Shown: in pieces, positions 736 through 49,926 of the stretch
Numbering within the stretch: the first letter of the stretch is position 1
Layout: each line of letters starts with the position of its first letter
Origin: a virus
Length of the DNA: 49,926 nucleotides
UHGV virus genome: UHGV-1353897
Direction: 5' to 3' (one strand)
Notes under the pieces: generated by a model
Seen by the model: only the letters and a program-made list of their open reading frames with translations
Database searches by the model: none
Told to the model about the DNA's origin: nothing
Program-made: the position numbers and the translations under genes

Positions 736-826
736 CGTAGAAAGTTAATATTCACGCAAGTTCGCGCTCCGCTTGGTCGCGCACCTTATAACACTAAGGT
801 GTTAACTTTCTTTTCAATAAAAAGTA

Positions 827-854
827 GTTTACATCTATGAAAATGCAGTATATT
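827..854 (+). promoter_or_regulatory. sigma70/T4-early-like promoter candidate
   Basis: GTTTAC (827-832), 16-nt spacer, TATATT (849-854); TTCAATAAA box at 814-822; lies in 190-nt intergenic gap upstream of CDS 925..1761. Confidence 0.4.
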
Positions 855-924
855 ATGTTCTCACTACACAGTCAGAACAACAATATGCCGCGGATACGGT
901 CTTAATAACGAAAGGGTTTTTATT

Positions 925-8013: not shown

Positions 8014-8047
8014 TTCAATAAAGCGGGTCATAGGGTATAATTCTATG
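8014..8047 (+). promoter_or_regulatory. promoter cassette (TTCAATAAA box + hairpin-embedded -10)
   Basis: TTCAATAAA at 8014-8022, TATAAT at 8036-8041 flanked by inverted repeat CATAG/CTATG; 27 nt upstream of CDS 8074. Confidence 0.4.
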
Positions 8048-8073
8048 ATCTGAATATAAACCAGGAGCACATC

Positions 8074-8409
8074 ATGTCACACAATGATTTTATGGCTGGC
8101 CTGGTGCAGGCCGCCAAACAGGTGTGCCACACCAAACAAGCGATTGAGCTGAGTCCGGAGCAGACTCTGGAGTTCTTCAACAATCGTAAAATCTGGGAGG
8201 AATATGGAATTGGTATGATATGCCAAGAGGGTGAACTCGTACATCTGGATCTGCCGTCATTCCCCCTTCCAGTGCGCACCAACACAGTGGAATGGTATAC
8301 GACGGAAGATGGTGTAGAGATCATCCCGAAGTTCCAGTATCACTCAATCGTAAACTTCTTTTTACGCCGTTGCGGGACTAATCTGATCCCACAAGGCATG
8401 AGATCTTAA
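8074..8409 (+). CDS. hypothetical protein
   Basis: 111-aa ORF; AGGAGCA SD-like sequence upstream. Confidence 0.5.
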   Translation: MSHNDFMAGLVQAAKQVCHTKQAIELSPEQTLEFFNNRKIWEEYGIGMICQEGELVHLDLPSFPLPVRTNTVEWYTTEDGVEIIPKFQYHSIVNFFLRRCGTNLIPQGMRS

Positions 8410-8424
8410 CAAGAGGAACACCAA

Positions 8425-8739
8425 ATGTCTGTAGAACAAATCGGTTTTTATGTACTACCATCTGATCCTGAATCCCGTCGCAAGCTGATAGGTGCAATTG
8501 AAAACTGTCGTGCCGCCCAGGTCCGCATCAAGTCGGAACAGACTTTCATTACTGAGACTCTGGCCGAGCTGGCGAAAGACACGGGTATCAAGGCCAGCGA
8601 CTTGCGCAAGGTTGTATCCGACCGCGCCAATGGAACTTACCATAAGACGATCGAAACGAGCGAGAAATATCAAGACTTATACGAGTCTCTATTCCCGAAC
8701 GCCAAGCCCGATCGAGATCCGAATGTCAGTGGCGAATAA
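8425..8739 (+). CDS. hypothetical protein
   Basis: 104-aa ORF; AGAGGAACA upstream of ATG. Confidence 0.5.
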   Translation: MSVEQIGFYVLPSDPESRRKLIGAIENCRAAQVRIKSEQTFITETLAELAKDTGIKASDLRKVVSDRANGTYHKTIETSEKYQDLYESLFPNAKPDRDPNVSGE

Positions 8740-8785: not shown

Positions 8786-8865
8786 TCAAAAACTTTACTT
8801 TCAAGAAATAATCGCCTAATATTTAATCTGTATTGAAGAGTTACAACTACATCATGAGGCTGGAA

Positions 8866-10384: not shown

Positions 10385-10583
10385 CATGCGCAAGTATTTC
10401 AATTGGCTGTTGGCAAGCCCCTGATGCGCTGAGATCCGTTGTCTAATCGATGCCATTGACGCCAAGGCTTGTTTACAAAGCCCTCTCCCGACATCACAAG
10501 CGCTAGATTAATCGCACAGAGGCTCAGGCCGAAATTAAAAATCGTGAAGAAGTCCACAAGGCTCTGGGTTTCATAACAAATAA

Positions 10584-10616
10584 TTCAATAAACTATTCAC
10601 CCATATAATACATGGG
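10584..10616 (+). promoter_or_regulatory. promoter cassette (TTCAATAAA box + hairpin-embedded -10)
   Basis: TTCAATAAA 10584-10592, 11 nt, TATAAT 10604-10609 within CCCAT/ATGGG inverted repeat; upstream of CDS 10638. Confidence 0.4.
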
Positions 10617-10637: not shown

Positions 10638-10979
10638 ATGACTACACTCGTAGAAACATTATTCCCAGGCTGCGTACTTGGGCGCGGCGGATCCGAAGCC
10701 AACGGGCTACCGATTGACGTCGAACCTCAGAACTGTGTTATTGTTGACAAGTTTCACGACAACCACTATGCCCTGAACAATCGTCGTGACCACTATCTTG
10801 TTTCCGTAGGAGATTCTTTGGTCAGTCTGCGCATCTGCAAGGCTATGCCAGGATACGGCTATGGAGCATTCGCCTATATTCACAGCGTGTCAAATGACGA
10901 GCTGGGTAAAGAAGCCCTGGTTGAAAAATTCAAGAGTTGGAAGGATTCTTTCACCTCAATTGAACCCCCGAAGAAATAA
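10638..10979 (+). CDS. hypothetical protein
   Basis: 113-aa ORF; GAAGGAACA SD-like sequence upstream. Confidence 0.5.
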   Translation: MTTLVETLFPGCVLGRGGSEANGLPIDVEPQNCVIVDKFHDNHYALNNRRDHYLVSVGDSLVSLRICKAMPGYGYGAFAYIHSVSNDELGKEALVEKFKSWKDSFTSIEPPKK

Positions 10980-10996
10980 CTGAGGACTACACACTG

Positions 10997-11605
10997 ATGT
11001 CACTGAAAAACTTACTGAAACGCATCTTCACCACTGTTGAAGCCAACGTCACCACAAGTCTGGATAAACTGACCGACACCGAAAAGCGCCTGAACCTGGC
11101 TGCTCGCAAGCTGTCTGACGAAATCCGTCGCCTGGAGGAAGCCCGTGTCACCAACGTCCGCAACGGCGTCAAGCTGAAGAAGACCGCAGAACAGAACCTG
11201 AGTGAAGCCGCCAAGCGCGAAGAAGTTCTGAAGGATGCCATCGCTCGTGGTGTCACACCAACCCGCGCCGACGCCCTGATTATTCTGCATCGCCGCCGTA
11301 TCGGTGAAGCCCTGTTGTCTCAGGTGAAGGACATCGAAGCAAGCAGCGACAAACTGAACGGTGCGATCATCCAGCTGGGTGACAAACTGGACGAAGTCAA
11401 GTCCAATCTCGAGCTGGTTCGTGTTCAGAAAGAGACGAACGACCTGGGTCTGGTGCTCCCTGAAGATATCGATTATGCCGCTGGTATGACCACCATCGAT
11501 ATCGATGCCATCCTGCGCGAAACCGAAATCGCTGATTCGAGCTACTCCGCCAACAGCCCGTCGTCTATCGAAGCCGACAACTACCTCGCCAGCCTGAGCA
11601 AATAA
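10997..11605 (+). CDS. coiled-coil protein (PspA/IM30-like?)
   Basis: 202 aa, strongly alpha-helical heptad-like composition reminiscent of PspA/IM30; weak assignment. Confidence 0.35.
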   Translation: MSLKNLLKRIFTTVEANVTTSLDKLTDTEKRLNLAARKLSDEIRRLEEARVTNVRNGVKLKKTAEQNLSEAAKREEVLKDAIARGVTPTRADALIILHRRRIGEALLSQVKDIEASSDKLNGAIIQLGDKLDEVKSNLELVRVQKETNDLGLVLPEDIDYAAGMTTIDIDAILRETEIADSSYSANSPSSIEADNYLASLSK

Positions 11606-12180: not shown

Positions 12181-12242
12181 TGGATACAGAAACATTTGCG
12201 GTCATTATCAGCCAAGCAAGATCCCACACCCGCCAATAATCT

Positions 12243-12285
12243 ATTGAAGTCCCCAGGGTTATAATAACAGCACATATAACCCTGG
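12243..12285 (+). promoter_or_regulatory. promoter cassette (ATTGAAG box + hairpin-embedded -10)
   Basis: ATTGAAG 12243-12249, 10 nt, TATAAT 12260-12265; 11-bp inverted repeat CCAGGGTTATA/TATAACCCTGG encloses the -10; upstream of ligase gene. Confidence 0.4.
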
Positions 12286-12294
12286 AGACACCAC

Positions 12295-14433: not shown

Positions 14434-15086
14434 CAGAGTGGCAGAAGATGGAGTTCGAGCGGGCGTTCAACGTTTACTGTGTCTTCATGGCGATCAAGCT
14501 GCACTTCACCACTAAGGACTTCGATTACAGCTTGTATGGACCTATGAATTACAAGTTCGAGACGTTCTTGGCGAAGGAGGCCGTGTGCAAACAGTTTGCT
14601 CGCCTTGCCCGTCGGTTCGAGTCATCACAGGGTGAAGTGGTAGAGAACTACATCATTGCCAACTTCATCAAATCACCCAAGACCTGGGTGACGACATTGC
14701 TTACACGCCAGGCTCAGGCCAATTATGATGAATACCGTAAGCTGTACGAGAACTTCACATATAACTTCCTTGAGGAGTTCGAGCGGGAGATGATCCCTGC
14801 CATAAGGGAGCGCAACTGTACCTTCATTGAGTACATCAAGGGGACGGGTACAGGTCATCCACCGTTGCTAACAGACATCATCATCAAGAAGTTCCCGATT
14901 TGGTTCCTTGTCGGTCTGAACAAGATCGTTGGGTTCATTCATCTATACGATACGATTCTGCGTGATGACATCTACTGGAACTCAGAGGCGTTCTTGCTCA
15001 GGAAGACGAATGCTGTGGTTCCGGATGAGGATACCACATATTCAAAACAGAGACTCCGTGAGCTAATACAAGCCCACGGAATCTGA
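14427..15086 (+). CDS. 59: helicase loader-like protein (T4 gp59-like?)
   Basis: 219 aa (T4 gp59 is 217 aa); FNVYCVFMAIKLHF..DFDYSLY resembles remembered gp59 N-terminal segment; memory-based and unverified. Confidence 0.45.
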   Translation: MLTEWQKMEFERAFNVYCVFMAIKLHFTTKDFDYSLYGPMNYKFETFLAKEAVCKQFARLARRFESSQGEVVENYIIANFIKSPKTWVTTLLTRQAQANYDEYRKLYENFTYNFLEEFEREMIPAIRERNCTFIEYIKGTGTGHPPLLTDIIIKKFPIWFLVGLNKIVGFIHLYDTILRDDIYWNSEAFLLRKTNAVVPDEDTTYSKQRLRELIQAHGI

Positions 15087-16673
15087 TTACCATTCCCACA
15101 GGATGCGGGAATTATCTGTTTTGTTCTCAGGCTCAAGATATGAGCTGTTGAAGTTATTGGTCGTGTTGATCCTCTTAGAAGCATCCACATTCTGCTGTAC
15201 TGGCATCACGACGCTGGCTGGAGGCGGTGAATAGCCGCCTTGTACTTGCTCAATATTAGACAGCGCCCTCCCTTGTGATGGCATGGCCCCGCCCAGAGTA
15301 CCACCCCCGATAGAACCATACGCAGCTTTCAGCTGAGAGGTGCGGTCATTAGTCATATTCTTGTCATCCGAAGACGCACCAGAAGGTATTGGAGTCAGCG
15401 TTTGTGGATCGATGTTCGGTTGTGCTGGCGTCTGTGGCTGCTGGGTCTCTGTCACATTAGGAGATGGATTCTCATCAGTGTCAATCAGCATAGACTGGCG
15501 AGCCTCATCCATCTTCTGCTTCGCAGTCTGTCCACCCAGAGCGTCAGGGATGATGCTGACGAACTTGTCAACGATATCGAACATCGCATTGGTGATTGTG
15601 TTCAGCATATTGAAGAAAGGTTTCTTCACATTTTCGGCAAATCCCTTCTTGATATCGTCAATGACCTTGTTGGCCACACCCATGCCCTCGTCGATCACAC
15701 TACTGATACCCCCTGTGATCCAGTCTACCAGCTTCATCAACTCGGACTGTAGGTTGTCTGCTAACTTGCCAGGGATATCCGTAAGAGACGTGTCTCTCCC
15801 GATCCCTGCAAACAAGTCGTTGCTAATCCAGTCGATAATACCATTCAGCCAACGAGCGGGAGCCTCAGTGATCATGAGGGTGTATTTGCGCAGGGTTTCA
15901 CCCGCCTCGGTATCAAAGCCAAAGATCTTGGACACCCAGTCAAATAGATCACCAAATCCACCAACCAGTTCTGATATCCCCGCCCGTACTCGGTCAACTA
16001 TCGTGACAGCACCTTTACCCAGGATCTCCTTCGCATCAATGAAGCCTTTACCGAAGTCCCAGATCATAGACAGGAGAGCCAGTGGGCCGACTTTCAGGAA
16101 CTTGAACACCTTCCCAAATGGGCCCAGAAGTTTGGTGATACCTTCTCCCAGCTTGGAGAACATGCCGAGGAAAGTCCCGACAACACCACCGATGATCTTG
16201 AACGGCTTGAGCAAGAAGCCCTTCAGTGCATTCAGGCCAAGCATGGCCGCCACCGCCGCCCCGATACCGGAGGAATCGTCTTTCTGGTCATCGTCTTTGG
16301 GTATAACAGAACCCGCCTGAGGATGACCACCCGTTTCTTTGTCGGTTTCCCCACGGCGCATCTCGTCCTTCTCACGCCACTTCTGGTCTTCATCAAAGAT
16401 GCGTGTCAACACTCCAACGATATGACCACCCGTGCGCCCAATCTTGTTTTCAATGCTAGACAAGCGAGTAAGGGTGTCATCGGAGTTCTTTTTCAGTTCA
16501 GCAACATCGTCACGAACCTCGATCATCACCCCGTCGATCATGTTCAAGAATGATCCCACGCGGACCAGAGACACACTCTGCTCGTCCATGCGCTTGAGGG
16601 TGTCATCATTGGCAGACTTCAGCTGGTCTGAGATCAGGTTAAGATACTCCAAGGACGTGTCATCTGTTGGCAT
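15087..16673 (-). CDS. tail tape-measure-like protein (gp29-like?)
   Basis: 528 aa, Gly-rich amphipathic repeats (GxxGxxK..), Gln/Pro-rich tail; last gene of a structural gene run. Confidence 0.4.
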   Translation of the reverse strand: MPTDDTSLEYLNLISDQLKSANDDTLKRMDEQSVSLVRVGSFLNMIDGVMIEVRDDVAELKKNSDDTLTRLSSIENKIGRTGGHIVGVLTRIFDEDQKWREKDEMRRGETDKETGGHPQAGSVIPKDDDQKDDSSGIGAAVAAMLGLNALKGFLLKPFKIIGGVVGTFLGMFSKLGEGITKLLGPFGKVFKFLKVGPLALLSMIWDFGKGFIDAKEILGKGAVTIVDRVRAGISELVGGFGDLFDWVSKIFGFDTEAGETLRKYTLMITEAPARWLNGIIDWISNDLFAGIGRDTSLTDIPGKLADNLQSELMKLVDWITGGISSVIDEGMGVANKVIDDIKKGFAENVKKPFFNMLNTITNAMFDIVDKFVSIIPDALGGQTAKQKMDEARQSMLIDTDENPSPNVTETQQPQTPAQPNIDPQTLTPIPSGASSDDKNMTNDRTSQLKAAYGSIGGGTLGGAMPSQGRALSNIEQVQGGYSPPPASVVMPVQQNVDASKRINTTNNFNSSYLEPENKTDNSRILWEW

Positions 16674-16736
16674 GCGGGTGATCTCACCGAGGCGTCAATC
16701 TTGCCTGCGATGTTCTCCAGTTCCCGATTGCCTTCG

Positions 16737-17033
16737 TTACCCCACATCGACAGTATCCTTCATCCATACGCTGAAGTCGCGGGTGAAGATCGGAGACATG
16801 CGAGCGAATCCCATGACGATCTCATTGACTGTCGGGATACGGATTTCAAATGGCTTGGACTCGGCCTTGGTGCCCTGTTTGGTGGCAGATTCCAGCTTGG
16901 CCAGATTCTTGTTCATCCGGTCAAGCTGTTTGTTGGTTTCATTCTGAGCGCGGAGTTGTTTGCGCTGCATCATCTCCGCCTTGATCTTGTCTAGAACTTT
17001 GACAACATCATTGTTCGTTGCTTCCTGTGCCAT
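16737..17033 (-). CDS. hypothetical coiled-coil protein
   Basis: 98 aa, Lys/Gln/Glu-rich helical; separated from downstream tape-measure-like ORF by 63 nt with stops in all frames. Confidence 0.4.
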   Translation of the reverse strand: MAQEATNNDVVKVLDKIKAEMMQRKQLRAQNETNKQLDRMNKNLAKLESATKQGTKAESKPFEIRIPTVNEIVMGFARMSPIFTRDFSVWMKDTVDVG

Positions 17034-17044
17034 GGGTCACCTCG

Positions 17045-18433
17045 TTAAACCTTCTGTGCTTGGCCTTTCTCAATCGCCTGAGGAGTAGTGGTGGAAGCAG
17101 TTGTCTGATTGGTCTGAGGTGGAAGCACCTGCTCCAGCAAACTGTCCTTGGCAATCTCAGCGATGCACTGATAATCTTTGGTCAGGCGGGAAATCTTGTG
17201 ACGCACTTTGGTCACGATATAGTGGCCTGTCGATAGCTTACTTAACTCTGCCAGGTTTTCGTTCTTCTTAGGACGGTTGGACTGGTCTTCGACGTAGAAC
17301 ACCTGACCGACGTTCAGGCGGTTATCACCAACGAGCAACACGCGCATCACAGTGCTGGCAAGACTGAAGTTGATAACACGACGAGCATAATCAATCTGCT
17401 CCGCTCCATCCGGCTGGGCTTCAATGTAACGGACGTTCTGACGATTGAATTCATCTGAGAACATCGGGAACGGATCAAGGTGAGCCGTCTCTGCAAACCA
17501 CTCAGTATAGATGCGCTGTGTTGGGGTGACTGTCTTGGTCTCAAAGTCGTAGACGCGCTCGTTCACCGCCAAGACATCGCGGTAGTTTGCCATGAACTGG
17601 TCACGCGCCAGCTTCTTCTCTGCCTTGATGATCGTGCGCATAAAGCGCTCAGAGTTGAAGTTGTTATCCTGCATGAGCGGCGCGTCCTGAGGATCACGGA
17701 ACAACTTGTTCTGCTGAGCTAGTTCCTGCTTCTCTTCTGCTGTCAATGACTGGCTACCCTGGTTGAACAACGTCGTCAGGCTCTTGAAGTGATAGCCATT
17801 GAAGTCTTCATAGAAAACGAATGGCATGAACAATTCGTCATAAGAACGGCTCGCCATATAATCAATAGATCGCAGCACAGGCCAGAGCGGGGTGGCGAAC
17901 CGCTCTTGAATTCCATATGACGGGTCGATGTCTTCGAACTTGGTGCGCGACTCCAACTGATTGAAGATTGTCTTTGCCATGTCAGAGTACGAACCGTCAA
18001 GACCGAGGGAGCATCGGATCATGCTGTCCTTATAGGCATCGGTGGTCACCATGTGCAACCAGAATGCTTTCTTGGACGAGCTGTTGGACTCATCAGCTAC
18101 GCGCCCAACACGCGCTACACGCAGGGAGAGAGTGGTGTATTCCGAGGCCGCCGGACTCTTGAATGACACCACAACTTCTTCACCACCCAAGATAGGCATT
18201 GTGTCAAGAATGTCCCACCCTTCTTTTATCAAGACATTGGCTGTAAGTGATGGAGATGACTTCCCTTCAAGACCCAGATCCTGGAAGACGTTGAACTCCT
18301 CAAACAACGCCGTCAGGTCATATGGCGTTGGTGATCCGCCCTGGGGTGTATGAGGGAGGATCGCCATATACTTCAGGTCAAATGTTGTTGACGGTGTTAC
18401 AATACCGTCTTGGGTCTCTCTGTTTTCGATCAT
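17045..18433 (-). CDS. putative baseplate/hub structural protein
   Basis: 462 aa in structural gene run; no motif recognised; assignment by context only. Confidence 0.35.
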   Translation of the reverse strand: MIENRETQDGIVTPSTTFDLKYMAILPHTPQGGSPTPYDLTALFEEFNVFQDLGLEGKSSPSLTANVLIKEGWDILDTMPILGGEEVVVSFKSPAASEYTTLSLRVARVGRVADESNSSSKKAFWLHMVTTDAYKDSMIRCSLGLDGSYSDMAKTIFNQLESRTKFEDIDPSYGIQERFATPLWPVLRSIDYMASRSYDELFMPFVFYEDFNGYHFKSLTTLFNQGSQSLTAEEKQELAQQNKLFRDPQDAPLMQDNNFNSERFMRTIIKAEKKLARDQFMANYRDVLAVNERVYDFETKTVTPTQRIYTEWFAETAHLDPFPMFSDEFNRQNVRYIEAQPDGAEQIDYARRVINFSLASTVMRVLLVGDNRLNVGQVFYVEDQSNRPKKNENLAELSKLSTGHYIVTKVRHKISRLTKDYQCIAEIAKDSLLEQVLPPQTNQTTASTTTPQAIEKGQAQKV

Positions 18434-18984
18434 TTCGCCAACTCCTGCTCCAGCTGATTGACAAACGAAGACACATAATCTGGGTCGAGTACTTGGATGT
18501 TCCGTTTGGCTTCATTCTTACTGATTGCATCATCATGGTATGAAACTGCCGTCAGACCATAGTTAGCAATTATGGACGGCTCATCCAGGTCTAGGTTATA
18601 TGCAAATTTGATAGCACGGGCGTCGGTCACATTGTTGAACTGGTCGACATAATAGGCTGTATCCCACATACCATCGATGCCGTAATCTGCAGTCAGTTCT
18701 TCAACAATACGGCGTTCCGGTTTCGGCCAGTCCTTATTGATGTCCATGATGCCGTTTATCAGACAAGGTATCCAAAACAACTCGAAGGATCCGTAAACGC
18801 GTTCTGCGAAAGACCTTGGGGTTTCCCCATCTTGGATCGTATACGGCAGGAGAAGCCCTTCGATGTCCTTAATTTTCTGTAAGATCATCACCCGGCGCGT
18901 TAAATTCTGTAACAGCACCTGATCATTCTCTTGGACATCTTGCAATTGATGCCAAACAAGTGGAAACTTCTCAAAATATTTCAT
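18430..18984 (-). CDS. putative baseplate-associated protein
   Basis: 184 aa; ATGA overlap with downstream gene; context only. Confidence 0.35.
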   Translation of the reverse strand: MKYFEKFPLVWHQLQDVQENDQVLLQNLTRRVMILQKIKDIEGLLLPYTIQDGETPRSFAERVYGSFELFWIPCLINGIMDINKDWPKPERRIVEELTADYGIDGMWDTAYYVDQFNNVTDARAIKFAYNLDLDEPSIIANYGLTAVSYHDDAISKNEAKRNIQVLDPDYVSSFVNQLEQELAK

Positions 18985-18995
18985 GGCATCCTCTC

Positions 18996-19964
18996 TTAGA
19001 AGCTATCGCCTTCGGTTTCAAAGCGCCCTTTATGCAGAGGCTCCAGTTCGATGAAGGTCATGTCAACCTGCGTGGACACGATACCATCATCTTTGTGAAC
19101 CGCGTATGAACTGTCCGGCGTCTCGTTGACGAACATGTTGGAAAGTACACAAGTGGAGATGCGGTGCAGCCACTGGTTACGCTCCCCATTGACCATGAAC
19201 GTAATGTCGAATGTTGAAGGATGCAAGTAAAACGCGCTGGAATTCTTGTTGTACTTGTACTCTGGGTACATATGCATCTTGAACATGCGGATGATCTCAC
19301 GGACCATCTTGGCTTCCTTCTGAGATCGCGGCGTGAATTTGAATGTAAACGGAATCTCACGGTTGCGAACACCCTGGAAGATCATCTCCACATATGGGTT
19401 GGTCATGGTGCCTGTGAACAACTCAAGGGTGTCATGAGCGTTAATGCTCGGCAGGAATGGAATAGCCTCCGACGCAGATTGGATAGCCTTGGTGGCAGCG
19501 AATCGCCCCATCTCCTTCCCGACGTTGAGCGCATCACCCAGTTTAAACTGAGTCATGTCTTGGGCGGCGCGGGAAAGGAACTGTGCCCCCATACCAGCCA
19601 GCCCCAGCTCGCTACCGTTCCAGCCAACACCATAGTTGGTTGTAATGGACTCAGGCATACAAAGTACGATAGACTCGTTTGAACGAACGTGACGCGCCCA
19701 TGCATATTTGGTGATGGAACCAGACTTGGACCCATAGACCACAGGAGTATTCCCCAGAGGGTTCTGTATTGGGTTCTCGATAGTCTGAGTAGCCGTGTTG
19801 CCATAAGATGAACCGGAGATGCGGTTGATGTTGAATAGGACATAGTGTCCCAAGGTCTTACCCCCAGTGACGTCCAGGGGATAAGATAATTGCTTCTGAG
19901 CCTGGGACAATCCCTTCGTGTTCAGAACCTTGATCTTATCGATTGTCTTCTTGAAGTCGGCCAT
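18996..19964 (-). CDS. putative baseplate/tail-tube initiator-like protein
   Basis: 322 aa (T4 gp54 is about 320 aa); context-based, no confirmed motif. Confidence 0.35.
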   Translation of the reverse strand: MADFKKTIDKIKVLNTKGLSQAQKQLSYPLDVTGGKTLGHYVLFNINRISGSSYGNTATQTIENPIQNPLGNTPVVYGSKSGSITKYAWARHVRSNESIVLCMPESITTNYGVGWNGSELGLAGMGAQFLSRAAQDMTQFKLGDALNVGKEMGRFAATKAIQSASEAIPFLPSINAHDTLELFTGTMTNPYVEMIFQGVRNREIPFTFKFTPRSQKEAKMVREIIRMFKMHMYPEYKYNKNSSAFYLHPSTFDITFMVNGERNQWLHRISTCVLSNMFVNETPDSSYAVHKDDGIVSTQVDMTFIELEPLHKGRFETEGDSF

Positions 19965-20014
19965 GGTCTCAGCCCTTAAATAGATAGAGTGTTATGGCTA
20001 TTTAGGACTAGATT

Positions 20015-20629
20015 ATGAGCAACTATCTTCAGGGGAAGTACACCCCGGTTAATCCCAAGAAGTATCAGGGGAATGTGAATAACATCATCTTCCGCTCTTC
20101 GCTGGAGTTGGTGGCTTTCAAGTTCTGTGATATGAACTCCGCGATAGTGAAGTGGTCTAGTGAGGAGACCGTAATCCCTTACATTTCCCCAGTCGACGGG
20201 CGCACCCATCGTTACTTCATGGACCTCAAGGTCTGGACGCGCCGTGAAGGGCAAGAGGAACTACAGGTCACCCTCATTGAGATCAAGCCCAAAGACCAGA
20301 TCAAGCAGCCGAAGAAGACTCCGAACATGAAGGAGTCGACATTCAACAATGCGATGCGAACCTGGTTGGTCAATTCTGCCAAGTGGGAGGCCACCCGCGA
20401 ACTGTGTGCCAAGAAGAACTGGAAGTTCATTATATGGACCGAAGAGCATCTTGTTCCGGGTGAAGATCCGGATGTTCGTAAACAGTTCGAATTGAAGTCG
20501 AAAAAGAAACGGGATATGGAGATGCAAGACCGTCGCCATGCTGAGCGTGTCAGGGTGCTGAAGGAACAGATGCGGAAGGAGATTAAACCCGCCCCAACGG
20601 AGCGGGATGATGGACTGCTCTTACCTTAA
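20015..20629 (+). CDS. gp2/gp4-family head completion / DNA-end protector-like protein
   Basis: N-terminal YTPVNPKKYQGN..IIFRSSLE..VIPYISPVDGRTHRYFMD matches remembered gp4-family signature (YRSSWE..HRYFPDF); basic C-terminal tail. Confidence 0.55.
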   Translation: MSNYLQGKYTPVNPKKYQGNVNNIIFRSSLELVAFKFCDMNSAIVKWSSEETVIPYISPVDGRTHRYFMDLKVWTRREGQEELQVTLIEIKPKDQIKQPKKTPNMKESTFNNAMRTWLVNSAKWEATRELCAKKNWKFIIWTEEHLVPGEDPDVRKQFELKSKKKRDMEMQDRRHAERVRVLKEQMRKEIKPAPTERDDGLLLP

Positions 20630-21258: not shown

Positions 21259-21768
21259 TTATTTGTCAGGGTTCACTAAAACAGGGGTGGATACCAGTTC
21301 GCCGTTCTTCACAGAATGCTGGACTACAACAATCTGATCGACCATGCGATATACTTCAATCCCAGCAGCCAGCATTTCAATAATGCCGTCTATGATACGA
21401 TATGGTCGGTCATAGAACACTTTAGCGATCTTGCCACTGTCGATAATACGACGGGTGCACTCTGGGCATGGACTATGAGTGACAAACATCACCAGACCAC
21501 AACAGTCTTCGGTGTGCTGGGGGAGTTTGCTCAGAGCATTCTCCTCGGCGTGGATAACACCCACCGATACCAGTTGACCGTCTACTTCCTTCTCACAGAC
21601 ATTAGGAGCGCCAGGAGCAGTCCCGTTCCAACCGATAGACAGGGGTTGGTCAACACGTGGGTCAACGATAACACAGCCAACCTTCAGGCGCTGGGCATAG
21701 CTGGACAGAGCGTATGCATGAGCCGAGCGCATATGCGCAAATAACATACGGGGTTTGATAGCCATCAC
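21259..21768 (-). CDS. cd: dCMP deaminase
   Basis: Cytidine/deoxycytidylate deaminase zinc motifs HAEENAL and PCPECTRRI; 169 aa. Confidence 0.85.
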   Translation of the reverse strand: MMAIKPRMLFAHMRSAHAYALSSYAQRLKVGCVIVDPRVDQPLSIGWNGTAPGAPNVCEKEVDGQLVSVGVIHAEENALSKLPQHTEDCCGLVMFVTHSPCPECTRRIIDSGKIAKVFYDRPYRIIDGIIEMLAAGIEVYRMVDQIVVVQHSVKNGELVSTPVLVNPDK

Positions 21769-22079
21769 ATCACCAGTTTCTTTTCAAGGAGGAAGATCAT
21801 GTCGTCTTGGTCTGCACGACCAAAGATCTGACCCATGGCGACCATCTGGTGGACTTCCCTGACAATGATTTCTTTGCCAGGAGTAACTTCATCCAGGTCC
21901 ATGATAGTGCTGACGCGGTCTACCATGCGCGGCGGGTGATTAATGTAGCGCTGCAGGTACTTCTCGCGAGTGGCGATCAAAGTGTTCAGCTCGGACAGCT
22001 CTGTCTCTTCTTCTGAGAAGCGCTTTTCCTTCGCCTGCAGTTCAGCCAGGCGCTCATACATTTCTTTTAATGGGGTCAT
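21765..22079 (-). CDS. hypothetical protein
   Basis: 104-aa ORF; GAGGAAC SD upstream; ATGA overlap with cd. Confidence 0.5.
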   Translation of the reverse strand: MTPLKEMYERLAELQAKEKRFSEEETELSELNTLIATREKYLQRYINHPPRMVDRVSTIMDLDEVTPGKEIIVREVHQMVAMGQIFGRADQDDMIFLLEKKLVM

Positions 22080-22100
22080 TTCCGGTTCCTCTTAATAAAC

Positions 22101-22132
22101 GAAGGGGAGTATATACTCCCCTTCTTCAATAA
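22101..22132 (-). promoter_or_regulatory. promoter cassette (ATTGAAG box + palindromic -10 hairpin)
   Basis: Perfect 24-nt palindrome GAAGGGGAGTAT/ATACTCCCCTTC (22101-22124) with TATATA at centre; minus-strand TTATTGAAG immediately upstream; 22 nt before CDS start 22079. Confidence 0.4.
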
Positions 22133-24928: not shown

Positions 24929-25544
24929 TATTCACCCCCTCCACCCGGATAATTTCTTCTTCAGAATCGACGACGTTGATATCATCGTCCAGCGCGTTCA
25001 GATTTTCCATGTCTTCCGCAAACTTGTCTACTTCCATGATGTAGAACACGGGGACAACCCGGCAGCGAGTGTCTTCATACAGGGTTTCAGCCAGCGCTTC
25101 CACCTGGCGGACAACGTCATACAGATTCAGACCGCCGATGCCACAGCCGATAGCAGGCAGGCCGACATAGACAGTTTCGTCTTTAGTTGCTTCCACAATT
25201 TCATGCACCTGCTCAAACAGGGTCTGAACAGAACTGATGACAGACGGCATGCGAGCATTCGGACCTGGATAAAACTGAGTGTAGAGGTTCGCACCCCAGA
25301 CACCAGTGCTGTGGTCAAATGCATAGGACATGCCACCCAGGCGTTGCTCTGGACCACGAGGGTCGTTAGCATCGACTTCACGCAGGGCTGGGAAGTTGTT
25401 ACCGATGTGCAGGGCAATACCAGCGCCCATGGTAGACCAACAGTTGGCACCGTGGGCAAAGATGTCGATCAGATTGAAGCTACAGGCGGCTTTCAGTAAA
25501 TCGCCGCCATTGATTACATAGGTTGTCATGCGTACTGTCTCCAT
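24912..25544 (-). CDS. macro-domain protein (ADP-ribose binding/hydrolase-like)
   Basis: Two macro-domain signatures: HGANCWSTMGAGIALHI (cf. NAAN..GGGV..AIHRAAG) and VGLPAIGCGIGGL (cf. FPAISTGIYG). Confidence 0.6.
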   Translation of the reverse strand: METVRMTTYVINGGDLLKAACSFNLIDIFAHGANCWSTMGAGIALHIGNNFPALREVDANDPRGPEQRLGGMSYAFDHSTGVWGANLYTQFYPGPNARMPSVISSVQTLFEQVHEIVEATKDETVYVGLPAIGCGIGGLNLYDVVRQVEALAETLYEDTRCRVVPVFYIMEVDKFAEDMENLNALDDDINVVDSEEEIIRVEGVNNDMRV

Positions 25545-25768
25545 TCAATAATGCTGTTGTCAACACATGACACCTGGATGATGCCTGTGCGGTGGTGATA
25601 ATCAGTCATCTGCATGATAAAGTTGTTCCCATTGCGGATAATGGTGTTGACAACGATACCCTTGGCAGCAAGGCGTATTACAATGGCAGTACAAAGGCGG
25701 TCCATGTAACCGGACACAGAACCTGGTTCGAAGCATCGCTCGAACAGATTTTCAAATTCTGGGTTCAT
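25526..25768 (-). CDS. hypothetical protein
   Basis: 80-aa ORF. Confidence 0.45.
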   Translation of the reverse strand: MNPEFENLFERCFEPGSVSGYMDRLCTAIVIRLAAKGIVVNTIIRNGNNFIMQMTDYHHRTGIIQVSCVDNSIIEWRQYA

Positions 25769-25793: not shown

Positions 25794-25825
25794 GGCGGTA
25801 ATAATACCGCCTTTTTCTTCAATAG
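25794..25825 (-). promoter_or_regulatory. promoter cassette (ATTGAAG box + hairpin-embedded -10)
   Basis: Minus strand CTATTGAAG, 10 nt, TATTAT inside GGCGGTA/TACCGCC inverted repeat; the box overlaps the stop codon of the upstream gene; 26 nt before CDS start 25768. Confidence 0.4.
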
Positions 25826-31520: not shown

Positions 31521-32021
31521 CTAGCCCAGAAACACTACTAAAGTCAAATTAGTGAGGGCGCTGCGACCTTCCCGCAGCATTTCATGCGCAGATGCAAGGC
31601 GCTTGGGGTCATGCAACGTATCAGAGAACACGATGATGTTTGCTTTATCGATGTCCGTGCCCATGTAATGGGAGATGGTTGTCGTGTGCTGTTTCTTGTC
31701 TACATCGGGCAATGATACATCCGCACCTGCTCGGGAGCGGAAGAAAGAATCGCGTTCACTAACGCTATGGAAGACACCCATGATGTAGAGGTTGTTCTCT
31801 GTCTGGAAATCATAGGACAGAATCTTCTTCAGCGCGGCGGTGTGCCCAGTCTGGCGCAGCATGCGATAGTACAGTATGTTTCCAGGACAGGTGGGGTCCG
31901 TCACACCTCCCCTCGATTGGCGATCTTTCTGGATTTCATACGCATCCAGGATAAGTTGTTGGACCATTTCAATATGGGCAGTCAGGGAGATTTCGACTTT
32001 ACGTTTGACCATGGATTTCAT
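31521..32021 (-). CDS. hypothetical protein
   Basis: 166-aa ORF. Confidence 0.5.
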   Translation of the reverse strand: MKSMVKRKVEISLTAHIEMVQQLILDAYEIQKDRQSRGGVTDPTCPGNILYYRMLRQTGHTAALKKILSYDFQTENNLYIMGVFHSVSERDSFFRSRAGADVSLPDVDKKQHTTTISHYMGTDIDKANIIVFSDTLHDPKRLASAHEMLREGRSALTNLTLVVFLG

Positions 32022-32085
32022 TTGGTGTATCCTCAGTTAGGTTCCGCTCATGGGGAACGAGTCCATTATACACCGAATACCGGAA

Positions 32086-32113
32086 ATGAAAAAGAGGCCG
32101 GAGCCTCTTTTGT
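32086..32113 (-). terminator. rho-independent terminator (bidirectional hairpin)
   Basis: AAGAGGC-cgga-GCCTCTT stem-loop flanked by A-run and T-run; follows stop of minus-strand CDS 32140..32397. Confidence 0.55.
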
Positions 32114-34012: not shown

Positions 34013-34197
34013 GTTTGGTTCTCCTATAGACTGTTACGTATTTACCACAGCAATTGCAGCAGTATACGTGCATCGCGTATCCTTCGTCTGTGAAGTCGCA
34101 ACCACCACAGCGACAGAACAATTTCACGAACTGTTGGTCATGAACTTCACGGGGAGGGAATTGTTTGTGGGAGTATTCCCTAGTCTCGCCTTCGAAC

Positions 34198-34222
34198 TGA
34201 AAAGGAGGCCGGAGCCTCCTTG
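34198..34222 (-). terminator. rho-independent terminator
   Basis: GGAGGC-cgga-GCCTCC hairpin (same loop as 32086..32113) followed on minus strand by TTTTC; directly after rIIB stop. Confidence 0.5.
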
Positions 34223-34237
34223 GTGGATGGGGTTTGG

Positions 34238-38641: not shown

Positions 38642-38668
38642 ATAATACGGTGGGCGTCTTCAATTGAA
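38642..38668 (-). promoter_or_regulatory. promoter candidate (TTCAATTGAAG box + TATTAT)
   Basis: Minus strand TTCAATTGAAG, 10 nt, TATTAT; about 50 nt upstream of rIIA start, right after the preceding terminator. Confidence 0.3.
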
Positions 38669-38692
38669 AAAGCCCTCGACTGAGGGCTTTGT
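38664..38692 (-). terminator. rho-independent terminator
   Basis: AAGCCCTC-agtc-GAGGGCTT hairpin followed on minus strand by TTTTTC; just after stop of CDS 38698..39045. Confidence 0.5.
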
Positions 38693-39186: not shown

Positions 39187-39387
39187 TCACTTACGTTTGC
39201 GCTTGTTCTTTCCATAGGTCTTCGCCTTCTTCTTGCGGGTTACAGATGGACGACCATGTCCCGGTTCGCCGGGTGTGCCACCCTGAGTGTAACGACGCCC
39301 CCACATGTCATCACCACGATGCGCGGCGACGATTTCCATTTCTGACAGCGCTAGCATAGCAGCAACAGCCGCAGATGATTTCTTCAT
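39187..39387 (-). CDS. small protein with basic C-terminal tail
   Basis: 66 aa; hydrophobic N-terminus, Lys/Arg-rich tail; weak. Confidence 0.3.
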   Translation of the reverse strand: MKKSSAAVAAMLALSEMEIVAAHRGDDMWGRRYTQGGTPGEPGHGRPSVTRKKKAKTYGKNKRKRK

Positions 39388-39839
39388 TTTGTTTCCCCCT
39401 TGGCAGCATAGGACAGTGCCTGAACAATCATTACAGCCAGATCGATCGGTGAGTAGGTGCTGTTCAAATCTTCTCGAACACTCTGCTCGATTTCTTCATC
39501 AGACTGGACCACAGGACAGTTCTTCCCCTGGCGACGGCGTTCTGTGTTGATCATATCACGCAGGAGCAGATCGGTGAAGGAGTACTCGTCAAAGTTCTCC
39601 AGGTATTTCTGAATCCCAGTGGATACAGGGGTTTGCTCCGGCTCCTGTGCCCCAGGATCTTTCAGGGCAGCAACAGTGGCATCAATATCCCACAGAGGGT
39701 TCATCAGTAACAGAAGATTAACTGTTTCTCCTGACTCTGAAGTCGGGTTATTTCCCAGCACCTTGTAAAGATTCTTCAGGGTACTGTCAAAGGTCAGAAC
39801 GGTCTGCGCCAGTTCTTCATAAGTTGGTTTGGTAGTCAT
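39384..39839 (-). CDS. hypothetical protein
   Basis: 151-aa ORF. Confidence 0.5.
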   Translation of the reverse strand: MTTKPTYEELAQTVLTFDSTLKNLYKVLGNNPTSESGETVNLLLLMNPLWDIDATVAALKDPGAQEPEQTPVSTGIQKYLENFDEYSFTDLLLRDMINTERRRQGKNCPVVQSDEEIEQSVREDLNSTYSPIDLAVMIVQALSYAAKGETK

Positions 39840-39906
39840 CAGCGTTTGCTCCGGCGTTTGTTCTTCATCTTTCTTGGCTTGTCTGTCATGTCTTGTCCAC
39901 GAAAAA

Positions 39907-39945
39907 GGGGATAGAGCAATAATACCCTATCCCCTTTTATTGAAG
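39907..39945 (-). promoter_or_regulatory. promoter cassette (TTCAATAAA box + hairpin-embedded -10)
   Basis: Minus strand CTTCAATAAA, 11 nt, TATTAT inside GGGGATAG/CTATCCCC inverted repeat, then TTTTT; between stop of 39951 gene and start of 39839 gene. Confidence 0.4.
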
Positions 39946-42717: not shown

Positions 42718-42740
42718 GATGTATATCCTTGCAAAAGAAA

Positions 42741-42779
42741 GGGGAACGGGCTAATAATAACCCATTCCCCTTTATTGAA
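42741..42779 (-). promoter_or_regulatory. promoter cassette (TTCAATAAA box + hairpin-embedded -10)
   Basis: Minus strand TTCAATAAA, 11 nt, TATTAT inside nested inverted repeats GGGGAA..GGG/CCC..TTCCCC. Confidence 0.4.
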
Positions 42780-42798: not shown

Positions 42799-42966
42799 TT
42801 ACTTTTTCTTCAGCTCGTCCAGTTTGGCTTCGATCTGGTCCAGAATCTCTTTGCCTTTCTGAACAATCACTTCACCATCTTGCGCGTGTTTACGGAAGAC
42901 CAGAGCACCAGCGATGAAGCCGACAACCGCGCCAGGAAGCGCATAAACCAGCAGATCTTGTAACAT
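42799..42966 (-). CDS. small membrane protein (55 aa)
   Basis: Not in ORF track (under 60 aa); GAGGA SD 8 nt upstream of ATG; single TM helix then charged helix (MLQDLLVYALPGAVVGFIAGALVF...). Confidence 0.4.
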   Translation of the reverse strand: MLQDLLVYALPGAVVGFIAGALVFRKHAQDGEVIVQKGKEILDQIEAKLDELKKK

Positions 42967-43076
42967 GATAATATCCTCGCTTTATAGGCGAGGATATTTA
43001 TATCAGCGTTTCAAGAGTGCCATGAGGTTGACGCTGCTGGACTTCGACTTGTCCTCAACCTTGCGCACAGGCATCT

Positions 43077-47830: not shown

Positions 47831-47862
47831 AGGGGGAATTATATCCCCCTTTGGTTTATTGA
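47831..47862 (-). promoter_or_regulatory. promoter cassette (TTCAATAAA box + hairpin-embedded -10)
   Basis: Minus strand TTCAATAAA, 11 nt, TATAAT in loop of GGGGGA/TCCCCC stem; between DNA polymerase stop and lipoprotein gene. Confidence 0.45.
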
Positions 47863-47863
47863 A

Positions 47864-49792: not shown

Positions 49793-49926
49793 CTTCTTCA
49801 GTACCGTACATTACAGTTTTGCCAGATTTGGATTGAGCGATAATTTCGATTGCCATGATGTATTTCCTTCTCTTCAGTATTGTTGTTTGTTCGTACTACA
49901 ATTAGAAGTATACGCCAGTTATTGAA

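Follow-up and report, generated by a model that had tools for sequence, protein, structure and literature searches.

The window analysed here is a stretch of 49,926 nt of the virus genome UHGV-1353897. About 8 kb around the feature under study match Escherichia phage vB_EcoM-ZQ1 at 98% nucleotide identity and Shigella phage Ag3 at 92%. The two phages are Ackermannviridae of the Aglimvirinae, with Ag3 assigned to the genus Agtrevirus. Judged by these matches, the window is from an Agtrevirus-like Ackermannviridae (ViI-like) phage. The gene map used throughout was transferred from the ZQ1 annotation. On this map, replication and nucleotide-metabolism genes occupy the plus strand up to position 15086, a late baseplate block follows at 15087–20629, and the minus strand from 20841 to the end of the window carries early-type genes, including those for dCMP deaminase, dexA, topoisomerase, rIIA/rIIB and DNA polymerase. 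Coding sequence makes up 94% of the window, leaving ~6% non-coding (6.2% intergenic as scored), and Rfam and tRNA scans detected no Rfam families and no tRNAs in it.

Between the helicase gene and the gene at 8074–8409 lies one of a set of recurrent cassettes that combine a short box with a −10 element (each site is named after the 5´-most base of its box, read on the strand of the gene). This cassette, at 8014–8052 (+), consists of the box TTCAATAAA (8014–8022), the −10 TATAAT (8036–8041) and an A/T-rich hairpin without a T-tract (8024–8052). Upstream on the same strand, before the gene at 1837–2496, the cassette at 1780–1823 has the box TTCAATAGA (1780–1788) and the −10 TATAAT (1801–1806), the latter at the apex of a 13 bp hairpin with a T-tract (1790–1823). 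The cassette at 10584–10616 (+), before the gene at 10638–10979, has its box at 10584–10592, its −10 TATAAT at 10604–10609 and a weak hairpin of just 5 bp at 10600–10616; it is present in few relatives, and ZQ1 has TTCATT at the position. Before the DNA ligase gene, at 12241–12289 (+), the box is inverted (CTATTGAAG, 12241–12249) and is followed by the −10 TATAAT (12260–12265); the 14 bp hairpin here (12249–12289) holds the ligase Shine-Dalgarno sequence GGAG within its 3´ arm.

On the minus strand, two further inverted-box cassettes were found. The one at 22094–22132, before the gene at 21765–22079, carries the box TTATTGAAG (22124–22132), the −10 TATACT (22108–22113) and a palindromic hairpin with a GTTTATT tail. 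The other, at 25794–25825 before the gene at 25526–25768, carries the box CTATTGAAG (25817–25825), which includes the stop codon of the upstream gene, the −10 TATTAT (25801–25806) and a hairpin of 7–8 bp without a sense-strand T-tract (25794–25811). Before rIIA, at 38642–38690, a palindromic box TTCAATTGAAG (38658–38668; the palindrome TTCAATTGAA is present at this site) precedes the −10 TATTAT (38642–38647), where there is no hairpin; a separate terminator at 38667–38690 runs into the box. In the cassette at 39902–39944, with the box TTCAATAAA at 39936–39944 and the −10 TATTAT at 39919–39924, the −10 is enclosed by a hairpin with the shape of a bidirectional terminator (A4-GGGGATAG...CTATCCCC-T5, −28.3 kcal/mol), and in that at 42733–42779 (box 42771–42779, −10 TATTAT 42754–42759) it lies inside a G/C-rich 10 bp hairpin followed by a T-tract (−31.8 kcal/mol). 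The cassette at 47831–47863 immediately follows the stop codon that ends the DNA polymerase ORF; its box is at 47855–47863, and its hairpin, AGGGGGA/TCCCCCT, has a loop that is exactly TATAAT (47838–47843). This last cassette is kept in relatives, some of which have a longer stem.

The original prediction was of at least 11 sites sharing one architecture; it listed just ten, and those ten exist within 1 nt. Additional members or variants were noted at 32065–32111, as box copies at 813 and 8831, and as a truncated copy at the edge of the window (49907–49926). In the variant at 32065–32111 (−), a terminator (32089–32111) runs into TTCATT (32085–32090), which is followed by N14 and TGTATAAT, with the −10 at 32065–32070 and no hairpin enclosing it.

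Occurrence and conservation of the cassettes

The box TTCAATAAA occurs in 6 exact copies in the window, against 0.25 expected. TTCAAT followed after 12–17 nt by a −10 element with at most one mismatch gave 8 matches against 0.39 expected, with a maximum of 4 in 200 shuffles. Seven of the 8 matches are intergenic, and all 7 lie on the strand of the next gene, 28–80 nt before its start codon, bearing out the predicted placement upstream of gene starts on the matching strand. The spacing between TTCAAT and the −10 is 14 nt at four sites, 15 nt at two and 16 nt at one; four sites in the window match TTCAAT-N14-TAT(A/T)AT exactly, and the others are off by 1–2 nt of spacing. A search for TTGAAG-N8–12-(−10) returned 5 matches against 0.27 expected, 4 of them intergenic and these 4 all with N10.

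An unbiased word count gave TTCAATA/TATTGAA as the most intergenic-enriched 7-mer of the window, outranking the −10 and start-codon words. Equal frequency inside coding sequence, which the original prediction had named as evidence against itself, was not what we observed: 13 of the 24 copies fall in the 6.2% of the window that is intergenic (p = 2.5e-10), and 12 of these 13 are at a predicted promoter. The cassettes are flanked by an upstream stop codon on one side and by a Shine-Dalgarno sequence and ATG on the other, and their −10 elements are near consensus (TATAAT, TATTAT or TATACT).

Orthologous sites are conserved in the ~19 relatives from IMG/VR that were compared, with the box, −10 and stems kept down to relatives whose flanking proteins are 55–65% identical, while the flanks diverge. 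Cassettes were present in every Ackermannviridae locus fetched (1–5 matches per ~20 kb in most, and 7 in the 50 kb ZQ1 locus) and in 0 of 2 distant loci. The complete ZQ1 genome has ~13 box-type sites, all but one of them in prereplicative gene regions; the exception, at 126104, lies just past the capsid-gene block. Placement of the stem-loop is variable in ZQ1, where it may be around the −10, around the box, or upstream. The motif thus departs strongly from chance, is intergenic and in sense orientation, and is conserved across genera, and the sequence evidence supports the box-plus-TATAAT signals as real, promoter-like cassettes placed before genes.

The string TTCAAT[N14]TATAAT is reportedly first described for ViI-like phages by Adriaenssens and colleagues in Arch Virol in 2012. 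In the EspM4VN paper, it is one of "two unique regulatory motifs", the other being the late-type CTAAATAcCcc, and five TTCAAT[N14]TATAAT sites are given for that Agtrevirus-like genome; the motif was not recognised in the AG3, CBA120 and LIMEstone1 papers. The published motif has the same pattern and is from the same phage family as the cassettes of the window. The published mentions found, the original description apart, give the string only, without inverted copies, hairpins, box copies at early promoters or experiments, and no transcription start or 3´ end mapping for Ackermannviridae phages was found in the searchable literature.

One box in two orientations

Comparison of relatives defined a conserved core TTCAATA(A) at 1780, 8014, 10584, 39945, 42779 and 47862, and a conserved core (T/C)TATTGAA at 12243, 22132 and 25825. 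ATTGAAG, originally taken for a second box, proved to represent the reverse complement of TTCAATA, one motif inverted: TTCAATA(A) and (T/C)TATTGAA are one 8 bp box, TTCAATAA, which occurs in two orientations at nearly the same place. In both orientations, the centre of the 8-mer lies 15.5–18.5 nt before the first base of the −10, at approximately −27 to −31 from the predicted start. The orientation at a given site is stable across genera, and TTC/GAA outside the A-tract is invariant in the relatives. Counted from the 9-mer, the distance from box to −10 is 10–13 nt, close to the 10–12 nt first reported but with one more nucleotide at the upper end. The other strand offers no suitably spaced −10, which ruled out the inverted boxes as antisense promoters; a reading of TTGAAG as the −35 of a −10 element 17 nt downstream was also discarded on inspection.

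At TTCAAT-N14–16, the box is too close to the −10 for a sigma70 −35 element, as had been predicted, and it is this spacing together with the two orientations that keeps it from being read as a normal −35. An unlikely alternative is that the box is a weak −35-like hexamer read by unmodified host sigma70 polymerase, so that the cassettes would be ordinary early promoters that need no phage factor. TTCAAT does share 4 of 6 bases with the T4-type early −35 TTTACT, but genuine T4-early-type promoters (TTTAC-N17) form a separate class in the same genome. A generic scan placed weak −35-like hexamers (TTGATT, TTTTCA) at 16–18 nt, overlapping the box, at three sites, whereas the 14–16 nt spacing of TTCAAT itself is mostly below the N15–18 range given for sigma70 by the AG3 and CBA120 authors. 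Such a promoter would also fit the near-consensus −10 elements, the published observation that some T4 middle promoters work with polymerase alone given a perfect −10, and the outcome of the MotA/AsiA searches, which found no activator gene; yet the box is inverted, at nearly the same place, at four conserved sites, and a −35 contact is directional.

The predicted resemblance to T4 middle promoters holds for the geometry. T4 middle promoters have a 9 bp MotA box in place of the −35, centred at −30 and separated by 12±1 bp from a stringent −10; in the window, the 9-mer ends 10–13 nt before the −10. Both kinds of promoter stand before replication, recombination and nucleotide-metabolism genes. 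They differ in the box itself: that of T4 is (a/t)(a/t)(a/t)TGCTTtA, whereas that of the window is TTCAATA(A/G) or its complement, with no TGCTT, a difference already noted in the original prediction, and it occurs in two orientations in a phage for which our searches returned no MotA/AsiA homologue. An UP-like element, also suggested at the outset, does not explain a box centred near −29. By analogy with T4, where the MotA box has this role, the box is most likely the site of a separate candidate protein that would replace the −35 contact.

The same box recurs at early-type promoters. At 813–856 (+), a forward box TTCAATAAA (813–821) stands upstream of the −35 of such a promoter (TTTACA at 828–833, N17, TATTAT at 851–856), which is kept in a relative whose downstream protein is 63% identical. 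At 8794–8838 (+), TTTACT (8794–8799), N17 and TAATAT (8817–8822) are followed, just after the −10, by an inverted box TATTGAAG (8831–8838), and relatives also have TTCAATAA directly upstream of the −35. In ZQ1, the 8-mer is built into T4-early-type promoters of the form TTTACT-N16/17-TAnnnT: a box copy in the spacer, TTTACTTCTTCAATAA, is followed by 6 nt and then the −10, and an inverted copy often lies 4–6 nt upstream of the −35, giving the arrangement TTATTGAA, 4–6 nt, TTTACT, TC, TTCAATAA. Read by analogy with these ZQ1 paralogues, the copy at the window edge (49907–49926 (−); TTCAATAA, 6 nt, TATACT) is the spacer box of a TTTACT-N16-TATACT early-type promoter with its −35 beyond the window. 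The spread of box positions around the early-type promoters is unexplained by a simple "−35 replacement" model, and it suggests a separate DNA-binding factor, not a polymerase contact.

Hairpins around the −10 element

RNA folding gave stable hairpins, of about −14 to −32 kcal/mol, at 8 of the 10 sites; the hairpin is weak at 10584, and none surrounds the −10 at 38668 or 32080. Wherever a hairpin is present, it has the −10 at its apex or immediately beside it, and its 3´ arm contains the predicted start. Of the ten sites listed originally, eight thus have a strong hairpin, that of 10584 is weak and 38668 has none; the 8014 stem is A/T-rich, not G/C-rich. Of 11 cassette −10s, 7 stand at the apex of an inverted repeat that pairs perfectly over 5 bp or more, compared with 4 of 55 other TATAAT-like hexamers, 3 of these 4 being antisense images of cassettes. 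The sequences of the stems are entirely different between sites, and stem length and loop size vary as well.

In counts made over related sequences, which are not independent events, the 8014 helix is 97% paired across 13 relatives (at most 47% in slid controls), with 3 pairs (9 cells) changed on both sides (AU to GC, GC to AU) and 0 of 500 shuffles matching this; the 12243 helix is 97% paired across 15 relatives in an AU/GU/GC ladder with many G·U states (UG 10/CG 5; GU 7/AU 5/GC 3); and the 22132 stem has one GC-to-AU switch in 4 relatives. The G·U states at 12243 argue for pairing in RNA. Sense folds are also more stable than antisense folds (−21.4 versus −16.5 kcal/mol at 1780, −13.3 versus −7.8 at 8014 and −26.4 versus −17.6 at 42779), with 122 versus 46 G·U pairs in the same kind of count. 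Stem pairing is, from these comparisons, maintained by compensatory and G·U changes, which together with the better folding of the sense strand points to the hairpins as RNA elements of read-through transcripts from upstream, with no part in promoter recognition.

A U-tract accompanies a G/C stem at 1780, 39945, 42779 and, less clearly, 22132, and is lacking from five hairpins (8014, 10584, 12243, 25825 and 47862). The 1780 hairpin, which is kept in 10 relatives, and the 22132 site were each flagged as a terminator by an independent scan, and in the LIMEstone1 record the sole annotation of the 1780 orthologue is as a terminator. Three or four of the hairpins are accordingly predicted intrinsic terminators, and one would mask the ligase ribosome-binding site. 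At 38668 and at 32080, the two box promoters that lack a hairpin, a separate terminator stands upstream and its U-tract enters the box. This favours a view of promoter and terminator as distinct modules that mostly share one stretch of DNA, saving space.

It is very improbable that the sites are intrinsic terminators only, some of them bidirectional, with the A-rich box merely mirroring a U-tract of the antisense strand as its complement, and with TATAAT-like sequences that are A/T-rich loops without promoter function. An A-tract, a G/C stem and a T-tract do line up at several hairpins (39945, 42779), but the box is apart from the stem at 1780, 8014 and 10584, it occurs with a −10 and no enclosing hairpin at 38668 and 32080, and TTC/GAA beyond the A-tract does not vary in relatives. 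The opposite strand scores as a terminator at 25825 and 47862, with a T-tract that is the complement of the box; the neighbouring genes, however, are all co-directional, which leaves no evident need for bidirectional terminators. Intergenic terminators number 31–40 in the lists of the AG3 and LIMEstone1 papers, whereas in the window the plain terminators have TTCG-/TCCG-type tetraloops without a −10, and the loops of the cassettes all read TAnnnT, keep a constant distance to the box and lie 28–37 nt before most start codons.

Extrusion of a DNA cruciform or hairpin that presents a single-stranded −10, as in the phage N4 hairpin or plasmid single-strand promoters, would suit the position of the −10, which tops an inverted repeat whose centre is A/T-rich, but is highly implausible, given that many stems rely on sense G·T pairs, which are A·C mismatches on the other strand, where folding is much weaker, that stem length, stem sequence and loop size vary freely between sites, that two box promoters have no repeat at all, and that Ackermannviridae are not known to carry a virion RNA polymerase. 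The G·U pairs and the sense/antisense asymmetry disfavour protein-bound palindromes as they do DNA cruciforms.

A composite element and the reader of its box

We consider the cassettes to be probably family-specific prereplicative promoters of the Ackermannviridae, packed together with RNA hairpins into compact composites. The predicted order of elements is an upstream stop codon; the box TTCAATAA in either orientation, centred ~27–31 bp upstream of the predicted start; a hairpin whose 5´ arm takes up the short spacer; a near-consensus −10 at the apex; the 3´ arm with the predicted start; sometimes a U-tract; and then the Shine-Dalgarno sequence and ATG. RNA arriving from upstream would contain both arms and form the hairpin. 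Such read-through RNA would be terminated or attenuated at 1780, 39945, 42779 and probably 22132, and before the ligase gene its ribosome-binding site would be masked, to be free in RNA started in the loop. RNA from the embedded promoter would start inside the 3´ arm and, with the −10 at the apex, would be without the 5´ arm; it could therefore not form the hairpin, would escape termination and would keep the ribosome-binding site free, and each cassette would thereby return control of the gene that follows to that gene's own promoter. Where a U-tract is lacking, our guess is that the hairpin, apart from masking at the ligase gene, may act in attenuation, in stabilising or protecting 3´ ends, or in processing.

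This layout resembles the PeSL/PmSL cassettes of T4-like phages (Arbiol 2010; Comeau 2014), and the comparison, already drawn in the original prediction, is apt: in RB49 and phi1, the stem-loop of a PeSL is most often between the −35 and −10 or overlaps the −10. A −10 within a stem-loop, described at first as unusual, is thus not unusual for T4-type phages. PeSLs, for which promoter and terminator activities have both been measured and whose stems contain G·T pairs, are likewise intergenic composites of an upstream stop codon, A/T-rich DNA, a promoter, a stem-loop, a Shine-Dalgarno sequence and ATG. The PeSL stem-loop can terminate upstream transcription; the window has stable conserved hairpins at 8 of 10 sites, but a U-tract in just 3–4. 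PeSLs use a sigma70 promoter that is close to consensus and has a 17 nt spacer, whereas the box cassettes have 14–16 nt and no usable −35; it is the TTTAC-N17 promoters at 813, at 8794 and in ZQ1 that have the promoter by which PeSLs are defined. PmSLs carry a TGCTT Mot box, unlike the cassettes of the window, which have a different box and are from a different phage family. The gene-shuffling role of PeSLs is also not clearly seen here: homology to relatives stops at the cassette edge at 12243, 47862 and 42779, and gene adjacencies are broken at 0.30 of cassette junctions versus 0.21 of others. Despite failing the PeSL definition of a promoter, the cassettes would, by analogy, work like PeSLs.

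In T4, long early transcripts of e, soc, 49 and I-TevI hide the ribosome-binding site in a hairpin, and the site is free when RNA starts inside the hairpin. The ligase cassette (12241–12289) would follow this logic: it has GGAG in the 3´ arm and the −10 in the 5´ arm and loop, so that only read-through RNA could mask the site. The internal promoters of these T4 genes are late, whereas that of the ligase cassette is box-type, and masking here is a prediction from sequence.

The MotA/AsiA-like activator envisaged in the original prediction did not appear. T4 MotA and AsiA queries gave nothing significant in the ZQ1 genome (tblastn and phmmer), and no Mot or AsiA Pfam domains were present among the 20 window proteins scanned. 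According to the CBA120 paper, ViI-like phages lack MotA and AsiA, and in the early genome papers (AG3, CBA120, LIMEstone1) MotA, AsiA, Alt and ModA are reported absent and early and middle control is left unexplained. No candidate for a box-binding protein emerged from the window proteins or from the MotA/AsiA searches of ZQ1. The product of 8425–8739, annotated as a "transcriptional regulator", is a homologue of T4 DsbA (PF11126 in close homologues) and was set aside as the box reader, DsbA being linked to late promoters. The "histone-like" protein encoded at 31521–32021 has no Pfam, NCBIfam or HU-like features and no recognisable DNA-binding domain. When the box was compared by eye with the consensus sequences for sigma32, FNR, IHF, DnaA and H-NS, that of H-NS (TCGATAAATT) came closest to it, at 7 of 8 positions, which is probably an A/T-rich coincidence.

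As a tentative possibility, TTCAATAA might be an orientation-independent operator for an early protein, of the phage or of the host, that replaces the −35 contact, amounting to a "middle" switch similar to sigma appropriation that operates without MotA and AsiA. The 8-mer also brackets the −35 of early-type promoters and follows an early −10 at 8831, so that one factor could turn early promoters off and box promoters on, with the hairpins restricting expression to locally initiated RNA.

Collectively, the cassettes form a feature that is, at the level of sequence, real, strongly supported and functionally coherent, and from which we infer activity and timing. The core motif has already been published for ViI-like phages, and the composite layout has a precedent in PeSLs; what is new is that the box also occurs inverted, that there is evidence for the hairpins at the level of RNA, that one hairpin would mask the ribosome-binding site of the ligase gene, and that the box recurs at promoters of the early type. 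With motif and layout already known, the finding sharpens an existing open question, namely what reads the box, and opens none. ViI-like phages are widely used and engineered against Salmonella, E. coli O157, Shigella, Klebsiella and Dickeya, and the authors of the CBA120 genome paper were unable to identify signals or proteins for early or middle control. The cis-grammar described here, with a box in two orientations, a stringent −10 and hairpins that would insulate genes from upstream transcription, gives targets for start-site mapping, for pull-down of the box factor and for expression cassettes in engineered Ackermannviridae.

Late-type promoter words

The divergent late genes gp48 (- strand) and gp4 (+ strand) are separated by a 50-nt gap (19965-20014) with one such word on each strand: CTAAATAGCC at 19996-20005 (-) and CTTAAATAGATAG at 19975-19987 (+). 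Since both words are similar to CTAAATAcCcc, a late-type motif already published for this phage family, the gap probably holds a divergent pair of late promoters.

We also noted a T4-type late promoter word, TATAAATA, on the - strand at 42967-43002, within a gene array that is otherwise early-type. The word is directly followed by a hairpin, ATCCTCGC-CTATAAA-GCGAGGAT, which runs up to the start codon of a small gene (42799-42966).

Genes and non-coding DNA around the cassettes

The second gene downstream of the 8014 cassette (box plus -10) encodes a 104-aa protein (8425-8739, + strand) that is annotated as a 'transcriptional regulator' in relatives and was assigned to the T4 DsbA family through PF11126 in close homologues and phrog_639. 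The product of 10997-11605 (+ strand) carries the label 'e.6 conserved hypothetical protein'; its match to PspA/IM30, the family of phage-shock protein A, exceeds the Pfam cut-off (E=3.7e-10). Two non-coding stretches of ~200 nt each, 10385-10583 and 34013-34237, are unusually long for this genome; the former has a cassette only at its 3´ end, and no cassette was found in its remainder or in the latter.

Compared with Escherichia phage vB_EcoM-ZQ1 (ZQ1), the nearest complete genome, ~300 bp are missing at 39840-39900 (- strand) from a small gene encoding ZQ1 protein QVW27071. The deletion is bounded by short direct repeats, GCCAAGAA(A)GAT, and a 16-codon ORF remnant of the gene lies between the 39945 cassette and the gene at 39384-39839.

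A repeated promoter-leader and the DNA polymerase gene

A promoter and leader (49793-49926), compared with ZQ1 16249-16276 and paralogues (loci L042-L044), lie 5´ of a 642-aa DNA polymerase ORF. Because the polymerase gene of relatives is continuous at the corresponding place and lacks this promoter and leader, an insertion seems to have split the gene in the phage studied here. The downstream polymerase part would be driven by a copy of a predicted ~100-bp early promoter-leader cassette (TTTACTTCTTCAATAA...TTGAAAnnnAGGAACTATATCATG), which is repeated in at least 5-8 copies in ZQ1.

Stem-loop placement

The box-type promoter (conserved box plus -10) preceding nrdA in ZQ1 (82847-82872, locus L043) has an inverted repeat, CGCCGCC...GGCGGCG, that surrounds the box instead of the -10, which shows that the position of the stem-loop relative to the predicted promoter elements varies. 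Stem-loop placement likewise differs among the subclasses of PeSL (promoter-early stem-loop) cassettes of T4-like phages.
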